Notes: a model not told the origin generated them from the letters alone. A stretch of 64,000 nucleotides of DNA from Sphingobacteriales bacterium (GCA_016699615.1 CP064984.1:2488721-2552720), one strand, 5' to 3'. Positions 36,209 through 57,868 are shown, counted from the stretch's first letter. Numbers and translations are program-made.

Positions 36209-36217
36209 AATATTGTG

Positions 36218-36934: not shown

Positions 36935-36967
36935 CATATATTATTCATTAAATAAAAACTAATAAAA

Positions 36968-39270: not shown

Positions 39271-39649
39271 AGGTTTTATATATAAATATGAAATTATTTG
39301 TACAAATGTACAGATAATCTTTATCAATTTTCGTTCCACAATTCACAATGTATTTGTCTTTTCTATTGATATGTTTGAAATTTTTAGTGTTAAATATTTC
39401 ATAAAACTATTTTATTTTTTATTTTATATTGTAGTGCATAAAATGCTTATTATTAATTAGTTGAATCTTTTTATGTAAAGTATTTATTCTTTCAAATCAT
39501 ACATATTATTATTTTTTACTTTGATTTTTAATTTTATGTATCTATATTTGTTATTAAGAAATGTTAATAACTATCTTTTTATTGTTAATAAAACTGAATA
39601 TATGCAATATATGAATAATATGGAACACAAAACTAAAACTAGCTTGAGT

Positions 39650-42600
39650 ATGAATAAGAAGAGCCTACTTGTTTTTATTTTATCACTCTTTTCAGTTGCA
39701 TTTTTATTTGCAGTTGATAAAAGTGATTCGCAAACAATTTGTAGAGGAACTACAATTGCTGTAGATGGCATTAATTATACACCATACAATGATACAACTA
39801 TTGAATATACCATTCCTGATATATTAATGGTAGAAGATACAAATGTTATTCTCAGTGTAACAGTATTGCCATTACCAACCAAATCAATAGACACAGCAAT
39901 TTGCGTAGGTGCTACTATCAATATAGATGGCGTAGATTACACACCAGCAGCAGACACAGCAGTAGAATATACAATCTTAGGTGTTGATGACGAATGTGAT
40001 ACACTTGCAACAGTAAATATTACACACAAAGAAATACCAACCAAAACTATAGACACAGCAATTTGCGTAGGTGCTACCATCAATATAGATGGCGTAGATT
40101 ATACACCAGCAGCAGATACAGCAGTAGAATATACAATCTTAGGTGTTGATGACGAATGTGATACACTTGCAACAGTAAATATTACACACAAAGAAATACC
40201 AACCAAAACTATAGACACAGCAATTTGCGTAGGTGCTACCATCAATATAGATGGCGTAGATTATACACCAGCAGCAGACACAGCAGTAGAATATACAATT
40301 TTAGGTGTTGATGACGAATGTGATACACTTGCAACAGTAAATATTACACACAAAGAAATACCAACCAAATCAATAGACACAGCAATTTGCGTAGGTGCTA
40401 CCATCAATATAGATGGCGTAGATTATACACCAGCAGCAGATACAGCAGTTGAGTATACAATTTCAGGTGAAAATTTAGAATGTGATACACTTGCAACAGT
40501 AAATATTACACACAAAGAAATACCAACCAAAACTATAGACACAGCAATTTGAGTAGGAGCTACCATCAATATAGATGGCGTAGATTACACACCAGCAGCA
40601 GACACAGCAGTTGAGTACGTAATTCTAGGCGTAGATGACGAATGTGATACACTTGCAACAGTAAATATTACACACAAAGCAATACCAACCAAAACTATAG
40701 ACACAGCAATTTGCGTAGGAGCAACTATCAATATAGATGGCGTAGATTACACACCAGCAGCAGACACAGCAGTAGAATATACCATTTTAGGTGTTGATTA
40801 CGAATGTGATACACTTGCAACAGTAAATATTACACACAAAGAAATACCAACCAAATCAATAGACACAGCAATTTGTGCTGGAACAACTATTAATATTGAT
40901 GGCGTAGATTACACACCAGCAGCAGACACAGCAGTAGAATATGTAATTTTAGGTGTTGATGACGAATGTGATACAAATGCTACAATGAATATTACAATTA
41001 GACCGTTGCCAACACTTACAATTGACACAACAAATAATATTGGCGAAATTATTACAATAGATGGTGTAGATTATTCTCCAATAAGCGATACTTCAGTTGT
41101 ATATATCATTCCAGCAGCAGTTATCGAAGACTGTGATACCGTAGTTACTGTAAATATTGATGCAATTTTATTGCCACCTACTGTTACTCCAACTGATGAT
41201 ACAATTTGTATTGGTACTAAAACGTCTTTAGATGCATCAGGAATAGATAATGCAATAATTAAATGGTACAATAATCCAGCACTTACAAATCCAATTCAAT
41301 TAGGTAGTACATTAATTACACCTATTTTAAATTCTACAACAACATATTATGCTACACAAACAGTTTATGGTCTAACAAGTGAACCAACTGAAGTTATAGT
41401 TACAGTACAAAGTCAAAGTCCATTACCAACTTTAAGTATTCCAGCAGGACTTATATGTCAAGCTACAGATGTAGTTGTAAGTTCTTCATCAAGTGCTACA
41501 ATATTCTATTCTGATGCTGGCTATACAGTTATTGGAAATGGTTCAGAATTAACTTTAACAAATATCCAAGCAACACAAGTAATTTATGCAAAAGATACCA
41601 CTAATGCTGGTTGCCCAAGTAATATTACAAGTATTAAAATAACAGTTGAACCTAAACTAACAAAACCAAAAGTAAAAGGAACTACAATTTGTAGTGGCAA
41701 TACAGTAACACTTGTTGGTGCATCAGATTCAACTCGCTGGTATGATGATTCATTATTAACGAATGTAGTTAATATAGGAAAAACATTTATCACACCAGTT
41801 TTAGATACAACAACAATGTATTATCTACGTAACGAAGCTGAAGGCAAATGTTCAAGTGATTCTATAATTGTTACAGTAACAGTAAATGAAACACCAGACA
41901 AACCAATAGTTGGTGAAGCTTCAACTTGCTACGGACAGTTTGCAACAGTAGTTGTGGAAGGAGAGAATATAAAATGGTATTCAGACCAACAATTAACTAA
42001 TTTAGTATTCTTTGGTTCTACTTTAAATACACCAATTTTATATAGAGATACAATCTATTATGTTACACAAACCAAAAATAACTGTGTAAGTGATAGTGCA
42101 ACTGTAAATATAAAAGTATATACTAAACCAGATAGACCAATTATCAATTCAATACCAGTTATCTGTGAAGGAACTGAATTAGTTATTACAGTGAAAAATG
42201 AAGGAGAAGGTCAAACTTATAATTGGGTAGAGACCAAATAACTTTACATCTAGTGATATGAATCCAGTGATTGAAAATGTAACTTTAGCTAATGCTGGAA
42301 CATATACTGTTTATGCATCATTAGGCAATTGCAAATCTGAAGTGGCAACAACAATAGTATATGTTGATAAAAACCCAGTTGCTGATGCTGGTGCTGATGT
42401 TACAATATTCCAAAATCAACCAACTGTACTACAAGGTACTGGAGGTCAAATTTATTCTTGGACACCAGATGATAATTTAAGTACAAACAATATTAGCAAT
42501 CCTACCTTTGTTAGTGAAGATACAGGTGTATTTGCAATAGAATTAACAGTTTGGGACGGTGGTTTCGGTTGTTTAGACAAAGATACAGTTGTAATTACAG

Positions 42601-42878
42601 TTGTTCCAGTAGAAAAACTTATTATTCCAGATATTATTACACCAAATGGTGATGGCGTAAACGATGAATGGTATATTCAATATTTAGAAAATGTCAATTC
42701 ACCATACACATTAAGTGTATATGCTCGTGGTGGTGCTTTAGTAATGAGTACTTCTAGCTACAACCAACAGTGGAAAGGAACTTATAAAGATAAGGAACTA
42801 CATGATGGAGCATATTGGTATGTCTTAGAATTTGAAAATGGTGTGATTTATAAAGGTACATTAACCATTAAAAGATAA
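39650..42878 (+). pseudogene. T9SS type-B (CHU_C) adhesin with seven 162-bp tandem repeats, interrupted by an in-frame TGA (40550-40552) and a frameshift (about 42228-42233)
   Basis: Signal peptide MNKKSLLVFILSLFSVAFLFA. ORFs 39521-40552 and 40985-42241 share one frame. The third ORF (42258-42878) carries IIPDIITPNGDGVNDEWY. The classic junction ..YNWVGPNNFTSSD.. is restored by removing one base. Confidence 0.8.
39872..41005 (+). repeat. 7 tandem near-identical 162-bp (54-codon) coding repeats
   Basis: The ataccaaccaaa unit starts at 39872, 40034, 40196, 40358, 40520, 40682 and 40844, an exact 162-bp period. A degenerate eighth copy follows. Confidence 0.95.
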
Positions 42879-42920
42879 TCTGTAAATATTAAAATTATAT
42901 ATAAACATTAATTGCACAAT

Positions 42921-44489
42921 ATGAATACTCTAAAATATATTTCCGTTTTTATCATCATAACAATAAGTTCTATTTATTCTGCATATGCTCAACAATTGCC
43001 AGTGTATAATAACTATACAGTAAATCCTTTTTTTATACAATCCAGCAAGAGCAGGCGATAATCCAGATGGTGGTGTTATAAACTTAGGATTTAGAAAACA
43101 ATGGGATAAAATGCCTTATATCCAATTACTGGAGTCGCTTCTTGGGATTCAAGAATTAAAGAAAGTAATAGTGCATTGGGTGTTTCTGTAATACATGACA
43201 GAAATGGAAAACATATCATGAACACATTTGCAAATGTTGCTTATGCGTATAGAATACCATTTAACAAAGATAAAACTCATGGATTGTCTATTGGTGTTCA
43301 AGCTGGCATTATAGCAAATAAATTAAATATTTCTGAAGCCATAGCGACACATGATATTTCAATGGATCCAGCTTTGTTGGGTAATAATGCAAAATCTGTT
43401 GGTTTTGATTTGAATGTGGGAATTAATTATTTCTTCAAAGGATTGAATGTTGGTTTTTCTGTACCACAAGTAATTGGTGGAAAATTGAAATTTAGAGAAA
43501 ATGGAGACCAAACAGATAAAAATTCTATTTTTCAAACAAGAAGAGAATATATAGTATTAGTAAGCTACGAAGCAAGATTTGGAGGAAAAGATAAAAAAAC
43601 TTGGATGATTACACCATCAGTAATGATGAGAAAATATGAGGCTATCGACCCACAATTAGACTTCAATTTAATGTTAGGCTATAAAAAACTAATTTGGCTA
43701 GGTGGTGGATATAGAACTGGTGGCAGCATCAATGGTATTATTTCTCCAAATGCAGCAGGATTTCACGCAACAGCAGGTGCTGGTATCAAAGAAAGAGTAA
43801 ATCTGTTTTATACTATGGAATTGCCATTCAAAAATGTTAGAAATAATTTTGGCTACACACATGAGGTTACAATACAATGTAACCTAACACGTAAGGTAGA
43901 TAAAAAAGATTATGAGAAAGACAAAAAGAAAATGGAAGATGATATTGCAAATGTTGATAAAAAAGCTGATAGCGTTGCAAGTGTTGCAAATGATGCATTG
44001 GATAAATCAAATACAGCGATGGATAAAACTCAACAGAATGCTGAGAAATTAGACAAAGTTGAACAAAAAGCAAACGAAGCATTTGATAAAGCTAGCACAG
44101 CAACAAATACTGTTGATAAATTAGAACAAAGAGTAGATAATATCATGTTTAAAAAACTGACTTCAGTATACTTTGACCATGACCAAAATGCATTAACACA
44201 TGAAGCAAAAGACATCTTAGATGCTTTGAAAGTAAAACTTTCTGAAATGCAAGGTAACTACTTTATTTACTTAGCAGGAAATGCATCACAAGAAGGCGAT
44301 ATAAACTACAACCAAGCATTGTCTGCAAAAAGATGTGATGCAGTAAAACAATACTTAGAAGGAATTACATTGTCAGAAAGAATATTGTTATTGCCATATG
44401 GCGAAAATAGTACAGTTACAAATTCACAATCTACAGAAGCAGAAAGAGCAAAAAATAGGAGAGTTGATATCTTTATTTCTGGACAATAA
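42921..44489 (+). pseudogene. PorP/SprF family T9SS membrane protein fused to a coiled-coil and OmpA-like C-terminal domain (two frameshifts near 43028-43034 and about 43105-43125)
   Basis: Signal peptide MNTLKYISVF..AYAQQLPVYNNY, then NPFF(L)YNPARAG readable after adding a T to the T7 run. The body is ORF 43176-44489 ending NRRVDIFISGQ (OmpA family). Confidence 0.75.
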
Positions 44490-44515
44490 TAGAAATAAAC
44501 AAACAGCATATTTAA

Positions 44516-44547
44516 TAGCCAAGTATTTTATACTTGGCTATTTTTTT
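44516..44547 (+). terminator. rho-independent terminator after the PorP/OmpA gene
   Basis: 10-bp stem tagccaagta/tacttggcta, loop tttta, followed by T7. Confidence 0.8.
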
Positions 44548-44678
44548 GTGCATTTTGAACAAATTTGTAGCGTTTTTGTTCTAATGGTTGATATGAAATT
44601 AATTTCTATTTTTATATATAATGAATCGGAAAATATTTTTAAAAATTCTTGGTCTAACACCATTTTTGTATAATATGA

Positions 44679-44802
44679 AAATCTAAGATGTTGCACATAC
44701 CTAAGCCTAAGTTTTTGTGCTTGTAGTGCTATTTGTTTTTGATTTTCAAACCAGTAATAATATCTGCTTTGACGAAGTAAGTAGTTTGTTACTCAAGAAG
44801 AC
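44679..44802. repeat. about 124-bp intergenic repeat, copy A (pairs with 47256-47378)
   Basis: Hand alignment gives roughly 85% identity in direct orientation. The shared core is aaatctaagatgttgcacatac...gtttttgtgcttgtagtgcta...agtaataatatctg. Confidence 0.85.
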
Positions 44803-44842
44803 CAACAATGGTGAGGAGCTGTGGTGGTATTATTTTTTCAAT

Positions 44843-45511
44843 TTATCTATTAAATAATAGTTCAATACATTCGTTACATAGAAATCTTCTTTCATATGTT
44901 AGTTCTTTATTACGTTTTTCTGATTTAATTTTTTGTTTTCTTATGTTAACACTTCTATTCCAAAATAATAAACCTTTTTCTTCTTTTATTGCCTTATCTA
45001 TATCTTCTTTTGCAACAAATGAAGTACGATTATTCTCATTTCCAATTTGAAAATAATGGTCACAAAATTGACATTTTGCATAATTCATCATGTATATTAA
45101 TTGCATGTTGAATTTCTTTATAGGATTATAATATGGAGACGTTAGAATTTCGTGGCACTTATTTTTATTGTCAATTTGTATTAAACCGACACCGATATGA
45201 TTAGCAATCATAATTTCATCTTGAGTAAAACCATTGTTTCTTATGTCAGCAAGATAAACACGATTACCATAAATTGTATAACCAAATGCTTGTCCAGATG
45301 CAGTAGCAAATGCTTCTTTATCTCTTTTTACTTCTATAATAATAGTTTCAATTTCACCACTAAAGTCTCCACCAACATCTCTTAATCCAACTACGTCTGC
45401 TCTACTTTTAATTGTTCCAATATTCGTTTTTGTTTCAAAACACAAATATTGATTCTTTAACCATTTTTCCACATTTGGATAATATTCTTTTTCTAGTTTA
45501 ACATCATTCAT
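44843..45511 (-). CDS. PD-(D/E)xK nuclease-fold protein with C-terminal CxxC...CxxC zinc-ribbon-like region
   Basis: An E15...RADVVGL...IIIEVKR...GQAFGY layout fits the E-D-ExK-Q restriction-endonuclease-like core. C-terminal CQFCDH and CNEC pairs. Confidence 0.5.
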   Translation of the reverse strand: MNDVKLEKEYYPNVEKWLKNQYLCFETKTNIGTIKSRADVVGLRDVGGDFSGEIETIIIEVKRDKEAFATASGQAFGYTIYGNRVYLADIRNNGFTQDEIMIANHIGVGLIQIDNKNKCHEILTSPYYNPIKKFNMQLIYMMNYAKCQFCDHYFQIGNENNRTSFVAKEDIDKAIKEEKGLLFWNRSVNIRKQKIKSEKRNKELTYERRFLCNECIELLFNR

Positions 45512-45631
45512 ATTTTTAATCTTTTACCATTAAAACTAACTTTGTTATATGCGCTACTTTATAGCATCAATCAAATATAATTTTATTTTATAAAACATCA
45601 AACTTACTATTAAAAAAAATCACAAACTAAG

Positions 45632-46954
45632 CTATTGTTTTATATTTAGTTTTATTCCATTTTTTGGTTTTAGGGTAACTAATGGTTCGAGTATTACTTC
45701 GTGGTTGGTGTCTATTTCAAAATCGAAATGATAGAGTAGTTGTGCTAAGACTATCGTTATTTCCATGGTTGCAAAATTAAATCCTATGCACATTCTTGGT
45801 CCTGCTCCAAATGGATAATAGGCATTCGTATTTAATAATGGGTTTTGCTTTCCTATAAATCTTTCTGGAATAAAATCATCTGCTTGTTGCCAATACGCTT
45901 TGTGTCTATGTAAATGATAAAGACTTAAAAATAGCACTGTTTCTTTTGGTATTGTTGTATCATTTACTATTGCAGCTTCTTTACTTTCTCTACTTAAAAC
46001 ATATGCTGTTGGATACAATCTTAATGTTTCATCAATCACTGCTTTTATATAGGTTAGTTGCTTGTAGTTTTCAATAGAAAGTTCGCCATCTTTCATTATG
46101 CTTTGTACTTCTTCTTTTGCTTTCTTATATTTTTCAGGATGTTTGCACAAATTATACATTGCCCAAGATATTGCATAACCAGAAGTTTCATGTCCAGCAA
46201 CATATATCGTTAATAGCTCATCACGTAGTTGTGTATCGCTCATGCCTTCGTTGGTGTCTATATCACGAGCATCCATCAACATACTTAATAAATCATTTTT
46301 AGCAGCTTGTTTTTTTCTTTCGTTAATAACATGGTATAGAATTTTATCTAAGCTTGCTACTGCGTTCTCAAACTGATTGCGTTTGCCATTCAACTTAGAC
46401 CAAGTTTTATACATAGGATTGCGCATACAATTCATCATGTACAATTGCAAGTCATAAATATGTTTTTGAATTGGATTTAATTGACCTGCAACATCAGCAC
46501 CTAATAGTGTTTCTACTACAATTTTAGAAGTGAGTTGCATCATTTCTACATCAATAAAAACATTTTGTTTATTGTTTGTTTTCCATTCTTGTAGTTCATT
46601 TTTTGTCATGCTATTCATCACATCAAAAAAACCTTCTAATCTATTTTTATAAAATGCTGGTTGCGCTAAACGTCTTTGTTTAAACCAAGATTCACCATCA
46701 TTTGTAAGCAAACCATTGCCTAAAGTCATTTTTAATTTATTGGAATCATAATCTTTTCTATAGTTTTTGTGATTCGAAATTAAAATATGCTGAATGACTT
46801 CTGCATCGCAAGTAGTGAAAATCTTTCGCATAGGCAATTTAAAAATAAAAGAATTACTCGATTTAAAGTGTTCGCTAAAAAATGGAATAATTCCTTTAGA
46901 GATGTCTAGTGCATTGCCTAAAATGGGTAAAGATTTTATGGTAGGTGTACTCAT
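45632..46954 (-). CDS. cytochrome P450
   Basis: Heme loop FGAGPRMCIG, I-helix AGHETS and ETLR (ExxR) motif. 440 aa. Confidence 0.95.
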   Translation of the reverse strand: MSTPTIKSLPILGNALDISKGIIPFFSEHFKSSNSFIFKLPMRKIFTTCDAEVIQHILISNHKNYRKDYDSNKLKMTLGNGLLTNDGESWFKQRRLAQPAFYKNRLEGFFDVMNSMTKNELQEWKTNNKQNVFIDVEMMQLTSKIVVETLLGADVAGQLNPIQKHIYDLQLYMMNCMRNPMYKTWSKLNGKRNQFENAVASLDKILYHVINERKKQAAKNDLLSMLMDARDIDTNEGMSDTQLRDELLTIYVAGHETSGYAISWAMYNLCKHPEKYKKAKEEVQSIMKDGELSIENYKQLTYIKAVIDETLRLYPTAYVLSRESKEAAIVNDTTIPKETVLFLSLYHLHRHKAYWQQADDFIPERFIGKQNPLLNTNAYYPFGAGPRMCIGFNFATMEITIVLAQLLYHFDFEIDTNHEVILEPLVTLKPKNGIKLNIKQ

Positions 46955-47255
46955 AATTATATAAATATACGAAATATGAATAATGATATATTCGTGTTTG
47001 TTTTCATTTTTTAATGATTAGTGTTTTTATTTACTTTCTTTCCCTTGATGGAAGAGTGTAATATTACTTTTTTCTTGATAAAAAAGTAACAAAAAATCAA
47101 GGCTTACGAAAAATAACGCTAAAAATATTCGTCTTCGCTAATAGTTTTTAAACTTGTTCTGCTTCTTCTAAGGAGAAATTCAAATAGAAAAATTTCTTTT
47201 ACGCTCGACGCTTATTTTCTTAACACTATTTTTTTAATGTCGTTTTTTTAATAAG

Positions 47256-47378
47256 AAATCTAAGATGTTGCACATACTTATGTCTAAGTTTTTGTGCTTG
47301 TAGTGCTAATTGTTTTGTTTTTCAAACAAGTAATAATATCTGTCTTAGTAGATGTATGTAGTTGTTGGACAAGAAGAT
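47256..47378. repeat. about 124-bp intergenic repeat, copy B
   Basis: See copy A. Located between the helicase 3-prime end and the P450 5-prime end. Confidence 0.85.
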
Positions 47379-47546
47379 CTATTAGATTGAGTTTTTAAAT
47401 TGTTTTTTATTCTTGGTAACTCATGCTTCTTGTCTTTGCCTATACCATCAAAGGCGAGATTTTGGCGTGCTGCTTAGATAATTTTACACCAAACAATTGA
47501 ATTATCAACCATTTAATATGTAAGTTATATAAAACACCAACAAAAA

Positions 47547-47591
47547 TACCACTTTGTTCAACTGCCACAGATGTTATCGGTAGTGCTAATT
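47547..47591. repeat. about 45-bp repeat abutting the helicase stop codon (copy C1)
   Basis: ataccactttgttcaactgccacagatgttatcggtagtgctaa versus copy C2 ataccaagttgtgcaactgacacggctgttagcagtagtcg. About 79% identity over 42 aligned positions by hand. Confidence 0.7.
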
Positions 47592-49358
47592 TTATCCATA
47601 CAGTTCTTCAAGTTCTAATTTTTTAATTCTTGATGTAATTGCTCCTTTTGTACGTCCGAAATGTTTTGCTATATCTTTTGGATTTACTCCTTCGCAATAC
47701 ATTGTTGTAAGTTCATTGTCAAGTTCTGGTGTCCAAGGTTTATAAGCATCTTTATGCTTTGTTCTTATTTCGTCAACGGAATAAATCTTTTCAGTTTTGT
47801 TTTCTTTTTTGTCTATTTTTATTTGTTGTTTTTCTTCTTTGCTCACAACTTTCATAATGTGAATTTGTGTCGATTTTGGAAAGTCAATTGGCATTAAACT
47901 TTCGGGGATATGAATGCTGTTTCTAGCCCGAGTTACTGCGACATAAAGCAGATTAATTTCTTCATTCAGCTTGGTTGCGTTTATTTCTTCCGCTTTCTTG
48001 TCTTCCTTTAATTTCTCTAATTTTTCTTCTGAAATAAAGTCGTTCACAAGTTGAATAGCATCGTATTCCATTCCTTTACAACGATGAACTGTCGAGAAAA
48101 TCATTTCAGCTTTTTCTTTATCGTCATTGTCAACGTGTTTTTCTTTAATGGCTTTGATAATGTTAGGAATTTTGTTCCCATATTCTCTAACGATTTCAAC
48201 CATAATTGCAAGTTGAACATCTTCTGTCTTTTCAATGTAATCTTCTAACTCGTCAAGGTTCTTCATTGCCTTAATAAGTTTGTCTTTTATCAAATGTGTC
48301 TTGTTGTTGTAAAGATTGAGAACGTCATAAAGCGATGCTCCTTCGTCTGCGTATGTATATGAGTTGATGTTACCTTCAAAGTAAATGTGTTTTACCTTTT
48401 TCTTTTCGGTTATATATTCAATTGCTTTTAGCAAAAGTCCAAGATTTGTTCTTGCAAGCACTGCTTTGGTCTTTATTTCTTTATTGTTTCCTTTCCCTAT
48501 AATTGGAATTGCTTGGTGTTCGTTAATATGTTTTTTAAATTTCAAAACTTCCATTGCAAGATTTGCAATGTCTTGACTAAACCGAAAACTTGTCGAAAGA
48601 TTATATGTTCTGAAGTCCGCTTTTTCAAGAGAGTTTACGGCAAAACGCCAACCATAAATTTGTTGATGAGTGTCGCCAACGATTACTTTTATCGCTGGTT
48701 GTTTGAAGAAAACGTCAAGCATAGCTGGTGAAGCGTCTTGTCCTTCGTCAAAAAGTATGTAGTCGTATGGAAGTTTTGGATTTGAAAGCTGAAACTTTTT
48801 AAGATAAAATTCATGGGTTACTTCAATTTCTCCTTTGTCCATTTTACTCAATAAAAGTCGGGATTGAGAAACTATGTAGTCGTAAAATGATGATACGAAA
48901 ATTTTGGCTTTCGGGTCAGTAACTGTGTCAAGATAGTTTAAGTCCTGAACCTTTTGTTTGTCGCTGTTGCAGAAATAAGCAATGAATTTATTGATGTGGT
49001 TTGCAATTACATATTCTGTGTGTTTTTCTTCATTGCCTTGCAAGTTTAAAAGTTCTGCAATTTCATTTGTCTTGTAACCTTGTCCTCTTACTATGTAGTT
49101 GTTTTGAAATACTATATGTCTGTATGCAAGTGAATGGGCTGTTTCAACTTTCACGTTGTTCAGTCCTTTGTTGGCAAATTTTTTAGCGGCTTCAAGTTTT
49201 ACTGATTTGTTGAAAGCTAAATATAAAATTTTACTTGTCGCTGTTCGTGTCTTAGCGTATTCTATAACGGTTGTGGTTTTACCCGAACCAGCAACAGCAT
49301 TTATTTTGATGTTTCCAGATGAATTGATTATGTCATGTTGTTCGGGTGTCAATTCCAT
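47592..49358 (-). CDS. UvrD/PcrA-like superfamily-1 helicase with C-terminal helix-turn-helix domain
   Basis: Walker A AVAGSGKTTT, Walker B LFDEGQD, GDTHQQIYGWR, STVHRCKGMEYD and LLYVAVTRAR. The C-terminal 60 aa (WTPELDNELTTMY..GVNPKDIAKHFGRTKGAITSRIKKL) look like a sigma-r4/Myb-like HTH. Confidence 0.85.
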   Translation of the reverse strand: MELTPEQHDIINSSGNIKINAVAGSGKTTTVIEYAKTRTATSKILYLAFNKSVKLEAAKKFANKGLNNVKVETAHSLAYRHIVFQNNYIVRGQGYKTNEIAELLNLQGNEEKHTEYVIANHINKFIAYFCNSDKQKVQDLNYLDTVTDPKAKIFVSSFYDYIVSQSRLLLSKMDKGEIEVTHEFYLKKFQLSNPKLPYDYILFDEGQDASPAMLDVFFKQPAIKVIVGDTHQQIYGWRFAVNSLEKADFRTYNLSTSFRFSQDIANLAMEVLKFKKHINEHQAIPIIGKGNNKEIKTKAVLARTNLGLLLKAIEYITEKKKVKHIYFEGNINSYTYADEGASLYDVLNLYNNKTHLIKDKLIKAMKNLDELEDYIEKTEDVQLAIMVEIVREYGNKIPNIIKAIKEKHVDNDDKEKAEMIFSTVHRCKGMEYDAIQLVNDFISEEKLEKLKEDKKAEEINATKLNEEINLLYVAVTRARNSIHIPESLMPIDFPKSTQIHIMKVVSKEEKQQIKIDKKENKTEKIYSVDEIRTKHKDAYKPWTPELDNELTTMYCEGVNPKDIAKHFGRTKGAITSRIKKLELEELYG

Positions 49359-49551
49359 TTAACTCTATAAAGATTTCGTCAGAAAGTTATGTTTTTTTGT
49401 TTTTGTCTGTTCGTTAATTGCACAAAAGTTTCAAGTTAGCACTGTCGTCAAAGCATTACCTATAACATGCGGCGACTTTGCGAAGTTACGAATCTTAAAC
49501 CAAGTTTGCAAGTGAAGTAATTTATTATATATTATACAACGACCATCCTAA

Positions 49552-49594
49552 ATACCAAGTTGTGCAACTGACACGGCTGTTAGCAGTAGTCGTT
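49552..49594. repeat. about 45-bp repeat abutting the PIN-gene stop codon (copy C2)
   Basis: See C1. It overlaps the TAA stop of the PIN gene by two bases. Confidence 0.7.
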
Positions 49595-50009
49595 ATTTGA
49601 TTGTTTTTAAGTAAGTTTCAGGTGTCATAATAGACAATTTACTTGTTTTATAGTCTTTGATATTTCTCGTAATAATGACTTTAATTTTATTTTGATTTTG
49701 TACTGAAAAATTCTGCAATGCATCTTCAAAATCCTTGAAATCAGAATTTAGTGCATCAATTATTGCTTTTTTATCAGTAATTATGACATCAATAAAACGC
49801 ATTAATATTTTTAAATTTTCAATTACTTTTTCGTGTTTTGCAGTCTTTCGTAGTAAATAATAAATATTACTCAGCATAATAGAAGTGATAAATCCTTTTA
49901 TTTTGTCTTTTTCACAGAGATTTAAAATTAGAGAAGCTTCTTCAGAAAATGGTTTTCTATCAAAAAAGAAATCAAGAATTACGTCTGTATCGATAAGAAC
50001 TTTATCCAT
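49593..50009 (-). CDS. PIN-domain toxin (VapC-like)
   Basis: N-terminal LIDTDVILDFF, central DFEDALQ and C-terminal IITRNIKDY acidic/PIN signature. 138 aa. Confidence 0.8.
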   Translation of the reverse strand: MDKVLIDTDVILDFFFDRKPFSEEASLILNLCEKDKIKGFITSIMLSNIYYLLRKTAKHEKVIENLKILMRFIDVIITDKKAIIDALNSDFKDFEDALQNFSVQNQNKIKVIITRNIKDYKTSKLSIMTPETYLKTIK

Positions 50010-50037
50010 TACAAGTATTTTTCTGTCAAACGATTTG

Positions 50038-50262
50038 TTAATTCTTTTTTATAATCAAAATTTTTGGCATTTTGAAAGAGCCTCTTAATGATTTAATTGT
50101 CGATGTTAATTCAGTTTCTTCTTTTTCAATAATTTCGTTGTTTGTCAAGGCTTTAAGATAATTTTCAATTAAATCAGAAAGACTTCTTTCTTTATTTCTT
50201 GCATATTTTTTTGCCTTTTCAATAACTGATTGTTCAATTGTCAAAGTCAATTTTGTATTCAT
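50038..50262 (-). CDS. putative antitoxin (DUF6364-like, RHH-type)
   Basis: MNTKLTLTIEQSVIEKAKKYARNKERSLSDLIENYLKAL. Small gene 28 nt upstream of the PIN gene on the same strand. Confidence 0.55.
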   Translation of the reverse strand: MNTKLTLTIEQSVIEKAKKYARNKERSLSDLIENYLKALTNNEIIEKEETELTSTIKSLRGSFKMPKILIIKKN

Positions 50263-50350
50263 AATTTCATATTTAAAACAAAGATACAAAATTTTAAATT
50301 ACACGTGTAAATTGTGATTTTTTTATACGTATTTTTTCACGATTACCGTA

Positions 50351-50369
50351 AACGATTCACTACTACAGC
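50351..50369. repeat. inverted partial copy of the C-type repeat
   Basis: aacgattcactactacagc is the imperfect reverse complement of gctgttagcagtagtcgtt (49576-49594). About 15 of 20 positions match. Confidence 0.45.
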
Positions 50370-50553
50370 TGGTTTGGGACTAAATTTTGCCCATTCCTTG
50401 TATTTGCCGAATCATTCAAATACAAAAAAGTCGGTTATATTTGTGTACAAACTATAGGGAGACTTACACGTTATTTTCTTTATGTTATTTTTCAAATGCA
50501 GTTTTTATTTCTTATTAGAATGTGAGAGTTGCTATCTAAAAGTGTAATTCTAA

Positions 50554-51579
50554 TTATTCTATATTAAAACTCTTTGTATAGGTTTCCCATTTTTGGAGCA
50601 ATTGCTCAAAGTTGTCTGGCAGCTTTTGTTCAAAATACATGTATTCTTTTGTAACTGGATGTATAAAGCCTATGCTCTGTGCATGTAATGCCTGAAATGG
50701 CATTAATTCAAGGCAATTTTGAATAAATTGTTTGTATTTGGTATAGACAGTGCCTGCTAGTATTTCGTGTCCACCATAGTCTTTATCGCCAAAGAGTGTA
50801 TGCCCAATATATTTTAAGTGTACTCTTATTTGGTGTGTTCTACCTGTTTCTAATTTGCATTTTATTAAGCTTACATAGCCATATCTTTTTATTACTTCAT
50901 AGTTGGTAGCTGCATATTTTCCTGTTCTTCCATCAGGTACTGTTATAAATAGTTTTCTATGATATGGATTTCTTGATATATTGCATTCTATCCTGCCTTT
51001 GTCTTGCTCAACATCACCCCAAACTAATGCTATATAATGTCTATTGATGGTTCTGTCGTAAAATTGTTTAGAAAGATGATTGATAGCATATTCAGTTTTT
51101 CCAATAACCATCAATCCTGTTGTATTTTTATCAATACGATGTACTAATCCAGGTCTTGTATCGCCAGTTGTTTGTGGTAAATCTTTGCAATGCCACAATA
51201 ATGCATGTGCTAATGTACCAGAGAAGTTTCCATGTCCTGGATGCACTACCATACCTACTGGCTTGTTGATAATCATGACATCGTCATCCTCATAAATAAT
51301 GTATAATGGAATTTCTTCTGCTTGTACTGTATATTCATAACTTGGATTTGGCAATACAATTTCTATTCTTTCGCCACCTTTTATCTTGTAATTTGCTTTT
51401 ATAATTTTATTATCTACAGAAATATTTCCAGCTTCTATAGCTTGTTGTACTTTGTTTCTTGATGCAAAACTTAGCTTTTCAGTAATGAATTTATCTATGC
51501 GTATTGGCTCTTGACCTTTGTCTATGTCAAATATAAAGTTCTTATATAGTTCGTCTTCTTCTTCGTCTGTGGTATGCAT
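50554..51579 (-). CDS. rluD: RluA/RluD family 23S rRNA pseudouridine synthase
   Basis: S4 domain N-terminus, catalytic HRIDKNTTGLMV, and GRTHQIRVHL. Confidence 0.88.
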   Translation of the reverse strand: MHTTDEEEDELYKNFIFDIDKGQEPIRIDKFITEKLSFASRNKVQQAIEAGNISVDNKIIKANYKIKGGERIEIVLPNPSYEYTVQAEEIPLYIIYEDDDVMIINKPVGMVVHPGHGNFSGTLAHALLWHCKDLPQTTGDTRPGLVHRIDKNTTGLMVIGKTEYAINHLSKQFYDRTINRHYIALVWGDVEQDKGRIECNISRNPYHRKLFITVPDGRTGKYAATNYEVIKRYGYVSLIKCKLETGRTHQIRVHLKYIGHTLFGDKDYGGHEILAGTVYTKYKQFIQNCLELMPFQALHAQSIGFIHPVTKEYMYFEQKLPDNFEQLLQKWETYTKSFNIE

Positions 51580-51584
51580 ATTTT

Positions 51585-52919
51585 TTAATATAATGGATGG
51601 AATAATAGGCGAGTACCTTTATGTGTTTCATTAAATACATCGTTGTGGAATATCAAATTTCCATTGACAAAAGTATGTGTCACTTTTCCTTTAAATGTTT
51701 TATTTTCTAATGGACTCCAATTGCATTTATATAGTATATTGTTTTTTGTGATTGTTTGTTCTTGATGTATGTCTACAATTGCAATGTCTGCAAAATAACC
51801 TTCTCTAATAAAACCTCGGTTTTGTATTCTAAAACAAATAGCAGGAGCGTGGCACATTTTTTCTATTATTTTTTCTAATGTTATTTTTTGTTGATGATAG
51901 AAATCTAGTAATAAACTTAAGCTATGTTGTACTAATGGTAACCCAGATGGTGCTTTTAAGTATGTGTTGTTTTTTTCTTCTAAGATATGTGGTGCATGGT
52001 CTGTTGCAACTACATCTAATTTGTCATCTAATAATGCATTAAATAGCGCATCTTTATCTGATTTGTATTTTATTGCTGGATTGCATTTAATTTTACTGCC
52101 TAATGTTGCATAGTCAGTCTCGTCAAAGTATAAATGATGTACACAAACTTCTGCTGTGATTTTTTGTCTTTTAATGGAATGTTGTTTTGAAATAAGGATA
52201 ATTCTTTTGCAGTGGAAATATGAAAAACGTGCAAACGTGTATTGTGTTTTTTTGCTAAGTCTGTTGCTAGTTTTGATGATATGTAGCACGCCTCATCATT
52301 CCTGATTATTGGATGATAATTCATTGGAATATTATCGCCAAATATACTATGGTAGTTTTGTGTGTTTTGTTTTATTGTTTGTTCGTCTTCGCAATGTGTT
52401 ACAACAACAGTTGGTGCATTGGCAAATATTTTAGATAATGTTGCTTCGTTGTCTACCAACATATTTCCTGTTGATGAACCCATAAAAGTTTTATAGCACC
52501 AATTTTTGTAGCATCAGTCTTCATGAGTTCATCGTAGTTATCATTAGTGCCACCCATAAAAAAGTATAGTTTGCCAATGATGTGTTGGCTGCAATTTGAT
52601 ATTTGTTTTCTAATAATTCTTGAGTTACAGCATTAGGTACAGTATTTGGCTGTTCCATAAATGATGTAACACCACCAGCAATTGCTGCTTTACTTTCTGT
52701 ATATATATTAGCTTTGTGTGTTAAGCCTGGTTCTCTAAAATGTACTTGGTCATCGATAATTCCAGGAATGATGTAGTTCTGTTGTGCATCAATTATTGTT
52801 GCATTAGGTTCATTGATGGTGGTATCAATTTTTTGTATGATTTGATTATTAATAAGGATTTCTTTTGCTTCTATTTTTCCTTCATTGACAATAAATCCGT
52901 TTTTAATAATATACTTCAT
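51585..52919 (-). pseudogene. pyrC: dihydroorotase split into three ORFs by three homopolymer frameshifts (52558-52563, 52484-52487, 52160-52165)
   Basis: PGIIDDQVHFREPG metal motif. Adding one base at each run restores ..NYTFFMGATNDNYDELMKTDATKIGAIKLFMGSSTGNML.. and ..PLKDKKITAEVCVHHLYF.. Confidence 0.8.
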
Positions 52920-52961
52920 TTGTTATAGATGATTGATTGCAAAAGTAAATGTATTTGTTGT

Positions 52962-52991
52962 AAAAAAAAAGTTAGTGCATATGCACTAACT
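52962..52991 (-). terminator. rho-independent terminator downstream of the OmpA-family gene
   Basis: 10-bp stem agttagtgca/tgcactaact with a 2-nt loop. On the minus strand a T9 run follows. Confidence 0.8.
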
Positions 52992-53020
52992 TTTAGAAAT
53001 ATTCAATTGATTGAAAGAAA

Positions 53021-54628
53021 TTATTCTCCTTCTTTCATATTTACTGGTTTAAAATCAACTCTTCTGTTTACTTGGTGCTCACTTTCGTTCTCAGCATTTT
53101 TTACAGTTGGGTCTATCATACCTAATGGTAGTTTTTTGAATCTACTTGCAGAGATACCAAAGTTTTTAACTAAGTAATTGATTGCAGAATTTACTCTGTT
53201 TTCCGATAGTTTTTTGTTGTATTCTAATGAACCTCTTGTGTCAGTATGTCCTTGAACTTCTACAATTAAGTCTGGTTTTTTCTTCATTACTAAAGCAACT
53301 TTTTTCAACTCAGTTGCACCAGCAGGTGTAATGGCGTATTTATTTAAGTCGAAGTAAATAGAAGTTAATTTCCATGTATCATCAGTTACTGTTTCTTTTA
53401 CAGTTTCTTTAATTGTTTCTATTGTATTAGTTTCAATTACTTTTTCTATTTTTTCTACAATTCTTGGTGTTGTGTCTATGATGTTTACACAATTCTCTAT
53501 TTTAATTCTAGGATTAGAATAAGGTTCTGGATCTTTGTGGTCTGGACAGCCATCGCCATCGCTATCTAAAGTTCTACCTTTTGTATCTACTTTTGCACCA
53601 AGTTCTGTGTTTGGCTCTTCATCAACAATATCCAATACTCCATCTTGGTCTGTATCTAACAATGGTGGTGGTGGTGCTGGTTTGTTTGCTTCTTGGTATA
53701 CCATTATCATTTCCATAGGATTTACCCATTCTACGTGTTCTTTTTGAGAACCAATTCTACCAAATTTGTAGGTTAGATTTACATTCATGTATAAGTAAGC
53801 ATCTCTGTTTATTTTCGATAATGAGTTTACTGTTTGACCTGTAAATGAATTGTGTGTAGATTGGAAATTAAAGGCATCTAATTTGTCTGAATTCATAAAT
53901 ACAAATGTTCCTTCTAAGCCTAAATCAAATGCTTTAGAAACTTTGAACTTCATTCCTGTTGTAATTGGAAATACTACTTCAGTAAATTTGTTGGTATAAC
54001 CTCTTGTATATGCACTACCATCAATCGTTTTGTCGTCGCTGGCATTGTATATGTTTGATTCGCCTCTCCAAAATCCTACACCTATTTTATTGTACAGTGC
54101 AAAGATTCTTGGTTTTACTGGTTTATTTTTTATTTGAGACTTGATGAATTTATTATATCCAAATGAAAGTCCTAACCAATCTATGTAAAAGTTTATTGTT
54201 CCTTGATGAAAAACATTTGTTCTAAAATATACTGGTTCATTGAAGCCTAATTGTTTCCAATATTGTCTGTCCTCAGCAAATCCTCCTTCTTCAATTGTTC
54301 TTCCTGAAACTCTACCTAAGGTATAATCTAAGTTGATACCAAAGGCTGAACCAAACATTTTGGTAATTCCTATTCCTGCGCCCCATTGCAGTTCACTTGG
54401 TTTTTTTGTTTGTCTTACCCAGTCATAACTTCTAATGTCTGTGAATGGCGAAGTGGCACCACCATGTATGATTAATGCCCAATCTTTTAGATATTTTTTT
54501 GTTTCTAGTTTGTATAATGACTTTGTCTTTTTTACATCGTTTTTATCTTTTAAGGCTACTTGCACGTTCTCATTTGCAAAAGTAAAACCTGAAAAAAGAA
54601 TTAGCATTAAATAAATTATTTGTTTCAT
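53021..54628 (-). CDS. OmpA family outer-membrane protein with thrombospondin type-3 (calcium-binding) repeats
   Basis: Signal peptide and beta-barrel-like N-terminal half, DTDQDGVLD and DSDGDGCPDHKD repeats, and a C-terminal OmpA domain (GHTDTRGS..YNKKLSENR...NRRVDF). Confidence 0.88.
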   Translation of the reverse strand: MKQIIYLMLILFSGFTFANENVQVALKDKNDVKKTKSLYKLETKKYLKDWALIIHGGATSPFTDIRSYDWVRQTKKPSELQWGAGIGITKMFGSAFGINLDYTLGRVSGRTIEEGGFAEDRQYWKQLGFNEPVYFRTNVFHQGTINFYIDWLGLSFGYNKFIKSQIKNKPVKPRIFALYNKIGVGFWRGESNIYNASDDKTIDGSAYTRGYTNKFTEVVFPITTGMKFKVSKAFDLGLEGTFVFMNSDKLDAFNFQSTHNSFTGQTVNSLSKINRDAYLYMNVNLTYKFGRIGSQKEHVEWVNPMEMIMVYQEANKPAPPPPLLDTDQDGVLDIVDEEPNTELGAKVDTKGRTLDSDGDGCPDHKDPEPYSNPRIKIENCVNIIDTTPRIVEKIEKVIETNTIETIKETVKETVTDDTWKLTSIYFDLNKYAITPAGATELKKVALVMKKKPDLIVEVQGHTDTRGSLEYNKKLSENRVNSAINYLVKNFGISASRFKKLPLGMIDPTVKNAENESEHQVNRRVDFKPVNMKEGE

Positions 54629-54689
54629 AAGGAATAATTTTATACGAAGATATTAAAAAATTAGTATTAATTAACTAATGTTCTGATTA

Positions 54690-55931
54690 TTATTTTTCTA
54701 TATAGTCTAAATTTTTCCCGAATGTTTCGTCAATTCTTGTCCATGCTAATAATGCCAATCCAATACATATGATTCCAACAAGTATATTTGCGTACATTGT
54801 TGAGCCTGTAGAACTTTTGAAAGTTACGTACAGGAAGTTGATAATAATTACAAATCCGCGTACGAAGTTTGGTGCTGTATTGGTTACTGTAGAACGTATA
54901 TTGATACCAAATGATTCTGATGCTGTACTCATAAATACTGCCCAATAGCCAATTCCAAATCCTAAAAGGAAAATCATACTATAAAAAATAGTAAAACTCA
55001 GATGTGCAATTTGCCAAAATATGATGATAAATATTATTAGCATACATAAATATGTAATTATGGCTTTTTTTCTACTTTTTACAATATTTGAAAATATGCC
55101 ACAACTTACATCACCTAAGGTTAGTCCTGAATATACTGCCATGATTGCGTAGACAGCGACGTCTTTCTTGTTGGTAACTACTAACCCAATTGCTTCTGCT
55201 AATTCTGGTGCATATTTTGAATATAATTGCACGATATACCAAATTGGAACTGCAATTAGTATGATTGAAATGTATTTTATAAATGTTTCTCTGTCTTTTA
55301 CTAAAATCTTTAAATCGCCTAGTTGGTTTGATTTTTCTTTTGCTGCTTGGTACATGCCTGATTCGTAGACAGAAACTCTTAATAATAATAGTGCTACACC
55401 CATAATGCCTCCAATTAGGTAACACATTCTCCAATCTTTTATCCATAGCACTAATAAACAGCCTAATACTGCGCCTAAAACACCAAAACCTGCTACAAAT
55501 GCAGTGGCAATACCTCTTTTTTCTTTATTCAAAGATTCGTTGACTAAGGTAATACCTGCACCTAATTCACCAGCTAACCCAAAGCCTGCTATTAATCTTA
55601 GAATTGCATATTGCGTAGTGTTTTCGATGTATGCATTAAGAATATTTGCAATAGAATATACTAATATAGAACCAAACAATACAGAAAGCCTACCTTTTTT
55701 ATCTCCAATAATGCCCCAAGTTAGTCCACCAAGTAGCATGCCAATCATCTGTAAATTGTCTAATCTTATTCCTACACTTTCTAGGTTGGTATCTGTAATG
55801 CCTAAATCTTGTAAGCTAGAAATTCTAACCATACCAAATAGTAGTAAATCAAATACATCTACGAAGTATCCAAGTGCAGCAACAATAATTAATAGCGTTA
55901 CATTTTTTTGTTTATTCTGTTGGTCTTCCAT
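54690..55931 (-). CDS. MFS transporter
   Basis: About 12 transmembrane segments with the loop 2-3 motif GIIGDKKGR. Confidence 0.75.
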   Translation of the reverse strand: MEDQQNKQKNVTLLIIVAALGYFVDVFDLLLFGMVRISSLQDLGITDTNLESVGIRLDNLQMIGMLLGGLTWGIIGDKKGRLSVLFGSILVYSIANILNAYIENTTQYAILRLIAGFGLAGELGAGITLVNESLNKEKRGIATAFVAGFGVLGAVLGCLLVLWIKDWRMCYLIGGIMGVALLLLRVSVYESGMYQAAKEKSNQLGDLKILVKDRETFIKYISIILIAVPIWYIVQLYSKYAPELAEAIGLVVTNKKDVAVYAIMAVYSGLTLGDVSCGIFSNIVKSRKKAIITYLCMLIIFIIIFWQIAHLSFTIFYSMIFLLGFGIGYWAVFMSTASESFGINIRSTVTNTAPNFVRGFVIIINFLYVTFKSSTGSTMYANILVGIICIGLALLAWTRIDETFGKNLDYIEK

Positions 55932-56946
55932 CTTTCTTAATTGCCATTTTAATGATTTCTATATAGTTTGGTTTTAGTAATGCATGTTTGTAGAATCCTC
56001 TTTCTTTAATCATTTTATGCATTGTTGGTGTATTGTAGCTTGGTATGTTTTGCAAAAAATGATGTTCTAAATGGTAATTTACATTTAGTGGTGCGAATAA
56101 TATTTTTTCGATAAAGTTTGCATAAGTGGTTCTGGTGTTTTTGTATGGGTCGCTGGTGTCTTCGACTACACTATGCTCAGCAATAGAACGTACTCTTAAA
56201 CAAAAATTGTATGTTGTAAGCATGGCTGCAATCCATAGTAAATATAAATATGGTTTTCCAATAAAAAATAGAATTAAAAACATTGTAAGATTTACAATGA
56301 TTGGTCCTCTTAAATTATAATAGGCATTGCTAAATATTTGCTTCCATGTTCTTTCTTCTTTAGGTATTTTTTCAATTAAGTTTCCAAGGTTGTATTTTAG
56401 AAATCCTAAATGCATTGCCATTAATCCAAACTCAGTTTTAATACCAGTTAGTCCGATTAAATCTCTTACAAATTTTCTAAGTAGGCTTAACATTTTGGTA
56501 GGGTAGGCTTTTACTAAGTTTAAGTCTGGATCTTCGTAGGTGCCAGTTGCTAAATGATGTTGGAAATGGTATGGTCTGTATTGTTCTACATTATGAAAGA
56601 TTGGATAGGCACCAAATATGTTTCCAATCCAATTGTTTAGTTTTTTTGTTGTGAATAATGAATAATGTGATGCATCGTGCATGATGATGGCGCAACCTAA
56701 CTGTTTGCCACCAAGTATGAATAATGCAATTATAATAGTGAATATATTTGGAAATATTGCCACTAAAGCAAAAGCGAAAATTATCCAAAGCCAAACAGAG
56801 AGTATTGATAGTGTGGCTCTGAAATTTGATTTTGCATGAAGTTTTTTTATTTCTTCTTTGGATAGATATTCATTTATAATCTGTTTGTATTTAAGTGCCT
56901 GATTGTTTTCTGGTAACACACTTATATTCCAATAGTTTCTTTCCAT
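55912..56946 (-). CDS. membrane fatty acid desaturase
   Basis: Three His boxes: HDASH, HFQHH and HLEHH. Confidence 0.88.
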   Translation of the reverse strand: MERNYWNISVLPENNQALKYKQIINEYLSKEEIKKLHAKSNFRATLSILSVWLWIIFAFALVAIFPNIFTIIIALFILGGKQLGCAIIMHDASHYSLFTTKKLNNWIGNIFGAYPIFHNVEQYRPYHFQHHLATGTYEDPDLNLVKAYPTKMLSLLRKFVRDLIGLTGIKTEFGLMAMHLGFLKYNLGNLIEKIPKEERTWKQIFSNAYYNLRGPIIVNLTMFLILFFIGKPYLYLLWIAAMLTTYNFCLRVRSIAEHSVVEDTSDPYKNTRTTYANFIEKILFAPLNVNYHLEHHFLQNIPSYNTPTMHKMIKERGFYKHALLKPNYIEIIKMAIKKDGRPTE

Positions 56947-56996
56947 TTGTTACCAAATATAAGAAATCTATGTGATTGACAAAAGTATCTTAAGTA

Positions 56997-57861
56997 TTAA
57001 TTCAAAGATTTATAAATGGTATAAGCACTTGTGATTATTATTAATATACCTACTGATCTTAGAATTGTTTTTGGTTGTAAGAATTTTAAGATAAATGCTC
57101 CAATTGGTGCAGCAATTACGCCACCTAAAATTAATGCTAAAACTGGTTTCCAAGAATCAATGCCTAAGAAATAAATAAATATTCCTGTGCTTGTAAATGT
57201 TACAAAAAATTCTGCTGTATTTACTGTACCTATTACTTCACGTGGTGAGTTTCCTTTGTCTATTAAATTTGAAGATACAATTGGTCCCCAACCACCACCA
57301 CCAATGGTATCGAAGAAAGCACCAATAAAACCTAAGATAGGTGCAAATCGCCAATTGCTCTGTTTTGCTGTAAAGTTTCTAAAACTTTTGATTAGGATAA
57401 ATATTCCAAGTATAAGTAAATATGCTGCAACATATGGTTTTACAGTTTTACCATCAAATACTTTTGAAATAAGATAGGTTCCAATAATTGCACCTAAAAC
57501 GCCTGTGAATACTAATTTAAAAAATAATTTTTTATCTATGTTTTTCATAAATATATGTGATAAGCCAGAAACACCTGTTGTAAATACTTCTGCTGTATGT
57601 ACACTTGCTGAGACAATTGCTGGCGACACCTATTGTAAGTAATAGCGTAGAACAACTTACACCATATGCCATACCTAATGCACCATCTATTATTTGTGCT
57701 GTAAATCCTGCTAAAACTAATAATACAAATTCTCTATCTATAGAAAATGTGAGTAATGGATTTGGTGATGTATGAAATATTTTATACAACAAATATCCAA
57801 TTAAGCTGAATTTTAGTAGAAGTATAATGCCTGCTACGTATTTAAAATTTGTTTTTTCCAT
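56997..57861 (-). CDS. sulfite exporter TauE/SafE family permease (frame break near 57622-57632)
   Basis: Two overlapping ORFs together give a TauE-like protein of about 8 transmembrane segments. ..LLLTIGV then SPAIVSASVHTAEVF is read in the next frame. This break is not in a homopolymer. Confidence 0.7.
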
Positions 57862-57868
57862 GTTGTTA

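Follow-up and report, generated by a model that had tools for sequence, protein, structure and literature searches.

A foreign accessory islet in an activated-sludge Bacteroidota species is probably a fossil of integron-type gene capture

A 6-kb block between two core genes in a 64,000-nucleotide (nt) stretch of Sphingobacteriales bacterium DNA (the window, with positions counted from its first letter) is a foreign islet, fixed in one activated-sludge Bacteroidota species, that probably preserves a fossil of integron-type gene capture beside a separate two-gene module. The islet (positions 44546 to 50553, minus strand) extends from the terminator of a PorP/OmpA gene to the rluD stop codon, and its five co-oriented minus-strand open reading frames (ORFs) encode a toxin-antitoxin (TA) pair, a helicase, a cytochrome P450, and a 222-amino-acid (aa) protein. 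An ORF check agreed with the coordinates of an earlier sequence-only reading, which had described five genes of unrelated function between two core genes; Pfam matches were obtained for four of them and for both flanking genes (PorP/SprF-OmpA and an RluD-type pseudouridine synthase). That the TA-helicase half is a fossil integron cassette array is held with moderately high confidence. The locus is not an active integron, not a recognized defense system, and not a core region, and as a relic it belongs to a type of gene capture already known, not to a new system.

In the proposed history, the TA pair and the helicase, which resembles F-box DNA helicase 1 (FBH1), would once have been gene cassettes, each a gene (or pair) with a long structured attC site, able to circularize and to be moved by an integron integrase cutting at G|TT. 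The helicase cassette would still be delimited to the base, and the attC between the genes for the PIN toxin and the helicase would persist in degenerate form. The sites would then have lost their palindromic interior and, with no integrase nearby, shuffling would have ceased, leaving an ordinary accessory locus. The P450 gene and the 222-aa gene, predicted to encode a PD-(D/E)XK/zinc-ribbon protein, would have joined on as a third, independent module.

Key evidence comes from relatives of the helicase. In related loci, a conserved sequence follows the helicase stop codon, is repeated several times per locus, and always lies in the helicase orientation. A small ORF was considered for this stretch and rejected, as each of the two non-helicase frames is open in some loci, indels change the reading frame, and no start codon recurs consistently; the stretch is an attC site. 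Sites of this family are 136 to 205 nt long and separate co-oriented cassettes. An alignment of 28 sites gave a 21-pair consensus stem with 91.5% of cells paired and compensatory changes in 14 pairs, measures that 0 of 500 column shuffles reached, and slid controls were 31 to 42% paired. A covariance model built from aligned sites of the family (R1) detected, at E ≤ 1e-3, 72 sites spread over 24 loci and without exception on the helicase strand, with 15 in one locus (L008) and 14 in another (L028). Array sites score 30 to 148 bits with this model. At least 24 metagenomic loci on chromosomal-type contigs carry the helicase (70 to 92% aa identity) as a cassette within a co-oriented array, and the related arrays include contigs Ga0206116_1000064 and Ga0500093_000046. 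Other genes in the arrays encode TA pairs, glyoxalase/Ble-like proteins, helix-turn-helix (HTH) regulators, an HNH protein, and an EVE-domain protein.

Cassette edges in these arrays carry a further signature. The 7 nt preceding AAC in a cassette's own site reappear, reverse-complemented, after GTT at its 5' edge, with a mean of 5.95 of 7 positions complementary and all 7 in 14 of 22 cassettes, compared to 2.85 of 7 between R'' and R' within one site as a control. Recombination of circular cassettes at G|TT yields such boundary complementarity, and the pattern is therefore the product expected of that process. Judged by its sequence context, the helicase gene in these other loci is a genuine cassette of attC arrays. 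A single attC (104.6 bits) also follows the helicase in the cultured Algoriphagus ornithinivorans (locus L010, 9823 to 9965), with ordinary genes on both sides, and this looks like a lone cassette inserted outside an array.

The related arrays resemble large chromosomal integrons with species-specific attC repeats, such as Vibrio VCR/VXR (PMC13638679), in that their sites belong to a single sequence family, with conserved termini and a stem that covaries, and stand between dozens of small cassettes of one orientation, including TA pairs, glyoxalase/Ble-like genes, and HTH regulators. They differ in that their hosts are Bacteroidota, their sites are 136 to 205 nt long, and their cores read YTAAC...GTTAK rather than the strict RYYYAAC...GTTRRRY.

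The window retains the outline of the same helicase cassette. Homology to the helicase cassettes of loci L027, L029, and L030 (blastn, query positions 545 to 2439) starts at 49466, the G of GCATG|TTATAGGTAATGC, and ends at 47572 at ...GATAAC, the C of ACTACCGATAAC, 20 nt past the stop codon. The first base of the cassette defined by these blastn extents (47572 to 49466, minus strand) is thus the G of G|TTATAGGTA, and its last base is the C of ...CCGATAAC. The helicase cassettes of L029 and L031 have the same heptamer, ATAGGTA, at their 5' boundary, and the edge GTT|ATAGGTA is complementary at 6 of 7 positions to the window cassette's own R'', TACCGAT|AAC. Only the 5' end of the cassette's own attC survives (47572 to 47591, minus strand; R'' box ACTACCGATAAC), with a degenerate interior.

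A degenerate attC of full length (49454 to 49590, minus strand; ACTACTGCTAACAG ... CTTCGCAAAGTCGCCGCATGTTATAGGTAATG) fills the interval between the PIN stop codon and the helicase cassette. A site in this position was predicted ahead of the R1 search, in which the 137-nt sequence (49590 to 49454) was the second-best match in the 64 kb, at 13.1 bits (E = 0.28) over the model's entire length. In Smith-Waterman comparisons it matched best, from end to end, the attC lying before the L031 helicase cassette (z = 4.9, 0 of 60 shuffles). The site keeps R'', L', and R' and has lost the stem. Both here and after the helicase gene, attC-like sequence begins 2 to 7 nt after the stop codon. A repeat family (family C) has its two copies directly after the helicase and PIN stop codons (47528 to 47591 and 49533 to 49592; 77% identity, z = 10) and therefore represents the 5' part of two attC sites. 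The earlier idea of one ORF plus a conserved 3' noncoding module accordingly stands for the PIN and helicase genes and fails for a second repeat family (family A) and for the P450-222 module. Of the integron-like cassettes first envisaged, the helicase (by its exact boundaries), very probably the TA pair, and one degenerate attC remain; activity does not, and the P450-222 module and family A are unmatched.

Several observations weigh against this interpretation. The best attC match in the window reaches 13 bits (E = 0.28), compared to 30 to 148 bits in real arrays, and agrees with the model at the two ends and L' only. The helicase's own attC is recognizable for only about 14 to 25 nt (z = 1.3), and the relic sites fold no better than shuffled sequence (z = −0.9 to +0.2). 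The expected 5' boundary of the TA cassette (GTTAGCAGTA) was not found, the best candidate in the rluD-antitoxin spacer matching at 4 of 7 positions (6.1 bits). Neither the P450-222 module, which also does not follow the boundary-complementarity rule, nor family A, beyond a low-scoring local match (9.7 bits, E = 0.019 in 646 nt), shows significant similarity to the attC family. No integrase or transposase was found among the five islet ORFs and 20 other mid-sized ORFs tested in the 64 kb. The array fragments that were retrieved, together with a further 2 kb of Ga0500093_000046, likewise yielded no integron integrase, so the label "integron" for the arrays rests on attC structure and boundary logic. 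Finally, more distant relatives of the helicase, all less than 60% identical, occur in 2,680 plasmid records (1,890 of them conjugative) and 294 phage records.

Two further scans returned nothing. A sequence-only nhmmer profile of the attC family had no match in the window, and a strict scan for canonical cores (RYYYAAC ... GTTRRRY, 55 to 150 nt apart, at least 6 of 7 complementary) found none on either strand. The second result was dropped as evidence against integrons; the scan was too strict because the cores of this attC family are noncanonical (TGCTAAC / GTTATAG; YTAAC...GTTAK).

The plasmid and phage relatives raise the alternative that this is a generic islet or decayed defense island, assembled by ordinary recombination from fragments of plasmids, integrative and conjugative elements, or phages, with the attC-like sequence a passenger. 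The helicase also matches phage family phrog_1967 at 2.7e-83, homologues of the helicase and the 222-aa protein elsewhere sit among TIR, SNF2-PLD, HNH, PIN, GmrSD, and insertion sequence (IS) genes, the window lacks an integrase, and the P450-222 module moves without a recognizable attC. However, the relatives of 70 to 92% identity lie on chromosomal-type contigs, in at least 24 cassette arrays, whereas those on plasmids and phages all fall below 60%; the helicase unit is homologous precisely from one integron crossover motif to the other; and PADLOC recognizes no system. This origin is regarded as unlikely.

Comparison of strains bears on whether the array could still be active. Eight conspecific contigs (L019 to L026), found by exact-protein look-up, come from several activated-sludge and other metagenomes in several studies and are 99.4 to 99.9% identical to the window over 41592 to 58003, with the same five genes and the same spacers. 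The identical layout indicates that the islet is fixed in the species. The sequence-only reading had proposed looking for cassettes that vary between strains, and none was seen among these eight contigs, which weighs against an active or variable array. Separately, 12 of the single-nucleotide polymorphisms (SNPs) between the window and L019 cluster at 56701 to 57231, outside the islet, in or near ORFs at 55912 to 57629, and suggest another recombination tract.

A cluster of attC sites lacking an integron integrase (CALIN), as defined for IntegronFinder (PMC9024848), could in principle remain active here if it still exchanged cassettes via an integrase encoded elsewhere in the 2.99-Mb genome. 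The co-oriented ORFs, the noncoding modules directly after stop codons, and the R''/R' boxes kept at 49590/49466 and 47585 fit such a cluster, but the eight conspecific contigs from different samples share one layout, the relic sites are unfolded (z = −0.9 to +0.2) and score at most 13 bits, and there are no canonical core-site pairs, making continued exchange improbable. The lack of an integrase in the window, the unfolded relic sites, and the invariant layout together argue that the array has fossilized. We infer that attC decay, rather than an origin that was never functional, explains its present state.

As a fossil, the locus shares with CALINs and decayed sedentary chromosomal integrons its co-oriented ORFs, each followed by a site-like noncoding module, a TA cassette, cassette edges at G|TT and ...AAC, and no adjacent integrase. 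It differs in its unfolded sites, in content that is invariant among the sampled strains, in a P450-222 module without an attC of this family, and in having one full-length degenerate site plus one 5' stub (47572 to 47591), compared to the IntegronFinder 2 default of at least two attC sites for a CALIN (PMC9024848). Almost no integrons were reported in complete Bacteroidota genomes in the IntegronFinder 2.0 survey (PMC9024848).

The TA pair at the rluD end of the islet consists of a PIN_3 toxin gene (49593 to 50009, minus strand; PF13470, 1e-17) and a DUF6364 antitoxin gene (50009 to 50262, minus strand; 2.7e-22), so the PIN toxin-antitoxin first proposed is upheld as a putative pair. Compared with independent assemblies of the same species, the window lacks 1 nt near 50060, which shifts the reading frame of the antitoxin gene; the actual antitoxin has 84 aa (about 50009 to 50262) and Arc-like similarity, and in the conspecific contigs its gene lies upstream of the PIN gene and overlaps the PIN start by 1 nt. 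An identical PIN protein occurs in 21 contigs, and all eight of those listed carry the conspecific layout. A small overlapping antitoxin gene before a PIN gene is the predicted arrangement of type II TA systems with a PIN-domain (VapC-like) toxin and a ribbon-helix-helix (RHH)/Arc-type antitoxin. Unlike known PIN/RHH pairs, the one here has an uncharacterized DUF6364 antitoxin, of which the literature searched makes no mention. TA cassettes are typical of chromosomal integrons. The pair very probably entered as a cassette and would now stabilize the islet.

Base composition sets the whole block apart from its host. Across 44.5 to 50.5 kb, in spacers as well as genes, 1-kb windows have CpG observed/expected ratios of 0.71 to 1.14 with sharp edges, compared to 0.2 to 0.6 in the flanks and a mean of 0.49 for the window; the ratio is 0.61 to 1.0 in all five islet genes versus about 0.2 to 0.6 in almost all others. 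The helicase has the second-highest third-codon-position GC content among the window ORFs tabulated. An excess of CG-containing codons had been claimed for the helicase and TA segment; it proved stronger than claimed, with CpG raised in all five genes and the spacers. Because the whole block is CpG-normal and the host is CpG-depleted, the 6-kb block is foreign, horizontally acquired DNA.

The host genome (about 30% GC) combines strong CpG depletion (observed/expected 0.3 to 0.5) with over-represented GpC (observed/expected about 1.0 to 1.9), and its CpG depletion makes CpG content a sharp marker of recent acquisitions. A second CpG-normal patch (34500 to 37500, 0.74 to 0.98) overlaps a 1.6-kb stretch without a long ORF, where coaD fragments (35374 to 35517), two tandem GNAT-like ORFs (35921 to 36534), and a split ilvC (36968 to 38010) are found, and may be another foreign or error-rich segment.

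The islet is also missing from close relatives. In the closest other lineage (L016 to L018; PorP/OmpA 86% aa identity, CpG observed/expected 0.5, GC 28.5%), the genes for LolA, an adhesin, and PorP/OmpA are kept and are followed by genes for SSB and a TonB-dependent receptor cluster; neither the islet genes nor rluD was found downstream of PorP/OmpA. The nearest GTDB genome, a Chitinophagales metagenome-assembled genome (MAG) whose PorP/OmpA is 60% identical, was the sole and distant match in a PorP/OmpA scan of a genome contig collection and is nonsyntenic downstream. The same gene order and spacers across distant relatives would have marked a vertically inherited core region with odd-looking genes, its repeats belonging to a genome-wide family of repetitive extragenic palindromes (REP) or miniature inverted-repeat transposable elements (MITEs). 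Gene order is indeed invariant within the species, and the repeat search spanned the 64 kb only. Against this stand the sharp CpG discontinuity, the absence of the islet from the nearest lineage and the nearest GTDB genome, a helicase gene 83 to 87% identical in nucleotides to those of organisms of other orders, a P450-222 module 96.9 to 99.6% identical in a CpG-normal background, and repeat families A and C with two copies each in the 64 kb, all inside the islet. A core region is thereby largely refuted and is considered highly improbable.

The 588-aa helicase (47592 to 49358, minus strand) has Pfam helicase domains (UvrD-helicase PF00580, UvrD_C PF13361, and PF13538) and weak C-terminal matches to MarR/Myb HTH domains, so the "UvrD-like helicase-HTH" of the sequence-only reading holds for the helicase domains, with weak matches for the HTH tail. 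Among PDB sequences, the eukaryotic FBH1 was the only match at E ≤ 0.001 (7e-50, residues 3 to 488); UvrD, Rep, and PcrA did not pass this threshold. In addition to phrog_1967, residues 446 to 584 match phrog_323. By its core-domain motifs the protein is predicted to be a UvrD-type, FBH1-like member of helicase superfamily 1A (SF1A). It shares with FBH1 and the SF1A helicases UvrD, Rep, and PcrA a helicase core and the Pfam UvrD-helicase and UvrD_C domains; it differs from FBH1 in lacking an F-box, in its HTH-like C-terminal tail of about 50 aa, and in being bacterial, cassette-borne, solitary, and known from sequence. How FBH1 is related by descent to this helicase family of cassettes, plasmids, and phages may merit attention.

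Conservation of the helicase crosses taxonomic orders. Identity is 80 to 91% aa among the best 120 database matches, whose named members include Algoriphagus, Pedobacter, Flavobacterium, Saprospiraceae, and Chitinophagaceae, and 80 to 88% aa in named genomes of different orders, with DNA identities of 70 to 87% across relatives on contigs from many different metagenomes. No conserved neighbor was found among 83 loci, the largest neighbor cluster comprising 5 loci, and a viral contig scan with the helicase found no relative.

A defense function has been considered for the islet as a whole. PADLOC recognized no defense system at the locus, and its GajB profiles match the helicase (best 7.4e-20) through generic UvrD-family similarity. 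The match is the only likeness to Gabija, which differs in that no GajA (ATPase-Toprim nuclease) lies next to the helicase here or in the 83 related loci. The suggestion of a decayed defense island was not borne out, with guilt by association as its only ground.

The second part of the islet has a different history. The P450 gene (45632 to 46954, minus strand) matches PF00067 at 8.7e-82 and falls under every NCBIfam equivalog cutoff. With the 120-nt spacer, the 222-aa gene (44843 to 45511, minus strand), and 67 nt beyond, it forms a module (44776 to 46982, minus strand) that is 96.9 to 99.6% identical in nucleotides to six contigs (L002 to L007), and in all six the homology stops at 44776. The flanks of these contigs differ from those of the window: an O-methyltransferase gene lies upstream, and a tandem array of 126-nt units and then a GMC oxidoreductase gene lie downstream. 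They are CpG-normal (observed/expected 0.82 to 0.88) and therefore represent another genomic background. Within the P450 gene lie 27 of the 47 SNPs that separate the window from L019, nearly all at multiples-of-three spacing and mostly at third codon positions, and they form a mosaic with the L002-type allele. This pattern is evidence of ongoing homologous exchange under purifying selection and indicates that the module still swaps alleles by homologous recombination with the other genomic background. Only a single position of the 222-aa gene varies among these contigs.

The 222-aa protein had no match in Pfam, NCBIfam, PADLOC, or PHROGs. It belongs to a family of at least 127 homologues in several phyla, annotated at most as "hypothetical protein," with named members in Cytophagaceae, Turneriella, Phycisphaera, and an acidobacterial Candidatus Angelobacter MAG. 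An AlphaFold2 model (pLDDT 91) searched with Foldseek matched 3dnx (5e-6), then SfsA, Can2, NucS, MspJI, and viral MmcB-like proteins (3e-8), and among 42 homologues E60-V61-K62 and four Cys residues are invariant and D39 nearly so. The model thus predicts an N-terminal PD-(D/E)XK (MmcB/SfsA-like) fold and a C-terminal CxxC...CxxC zinc ribbon in a putative nuclease, and with the conserved D...(D/E)xK motif it bears out the nuclease-fold protein of the sequence-only reading. Homologues elsewhere are unlinked to P450 and sit among IS elements or TIR and SNF2-PLD genes. The P450-222 pair is a separate, independently circulating module that became joined to the helicase and TA genes. The tandem units of about 126 nt that follow the gene pair in L002 (3530 to 4050, 4 copies) and L003 (1347 to 1911, 4.6 copies) show 88% matches, and each unit junction carries a hairpin with a stem of about 13 bp in which some changes are apparently compensatory. 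Model R1 had no match to the L002/L003 array.

Family A brackets the P450-222 module as direct repeats of about 90 to 130 nt, one copy (44677 to 44812, minus strand) beginning inside the module, within the final 37 nt of its homology to the second genomic background, and extending beyond, the other (47254 to 47390, minus strand) lying 272 nt upstream. The copies are about 93% identical over 88 nt (z = 48). Family A may mark a boundary used in recombination, derive from a site of another family that has diverged, or be a small repeat element. An exact-pattern scan of a metagenome contig collection gave 0 matches and is uninformative, as the JGI contigs L019, L021, L022, and L024 carry the pattern and lie outside that collection. 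Folded as RNA, families A and C showed neither a convincing structure (z = −2.3 to +0.2) nor a common register. A third family (sp3 versus sp5) is marginal (z = 3.8). Of the several repeat families originally assigned to the spacers, A and C are far above chance, and the other listed repeats are at the AT-rich chance level. The spacer lengths given at the outset (353, 120, 637, 234, and 264 bp) are correct, and four of the five rank among the 12 longest of the 57 window spacers (median, 61 nt).

Other features of the window concern the setting of the islet. A terminator hairpin of 13 pairs (44514 to 44542, plus strand), identified by reading the sequence and by a terminator scan, lies 3' of the convergent PorP/OmpA gene and is probably the host-side edge of the islet. 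Sigma-70 promoter and terminator scans were otherwise at chance level. A tRNA search and an Rfam search at the gathering threshold found nothing in the 64 kb, in line, together with the ORF tests, with the initial view that integrase, transposase, and tRNA genes are absent. The window also contains dnaA (62304 to 63749) and parA/parB (17939 to 19678), placing the islet within about 15 to 30 kb of where replication is likely to originate. Compared with short-read assemblies made independently from the same species, the window differs by single-base indels at 42231, 43028, 43119, 50060, 52159, 52483, 52557, and 57625. They split the genes for the adhesin (39521 to 42878), PorP/OmpA (42912 to 44489), the antitoxin, and dihydroorotase (51585 to 52919, three ORFs), all intact in L019 and L020; faulty assembly of the source genome, not pseudogene formation, probably accounts for the eight indels.

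For the window itself, the message is modest: it holds a fixed accessory islet, not an active element. As a worked example, it illustrates how cassette arrays fossilize into ordinary islets, which would escape standard tools. Of greater interest is what came to light beyond the window, a Bacteroidota cassette pool and a very widely spread helicase cassette: the window led to at least 24 metagenomic Bacteroidota loci with true cassette arrays and their own attC family, and a concrete attC model is now available for mining such pools. Two candidate conflict genes also emerged, the predicted helicase-HTH and the putative PD-(D/E)XK/zinc-ribbon family that has no Pfam entry. The arrays show that the conservation of the FBH1-like helicase across orders is due to its travel as a cassette. 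More tentatively, with somewhat less than an even chance of being right, diverse Bacteroidota may share a cassette pool with a distinct long attC family, in which the solitary FBH1-like helicase-HTH would be among the most widespread genes and a candidate for a single-gene anti-phage or recombination-control function, and the window would capture cassettes made permanent by attC decay while the TA pair holds them in place.

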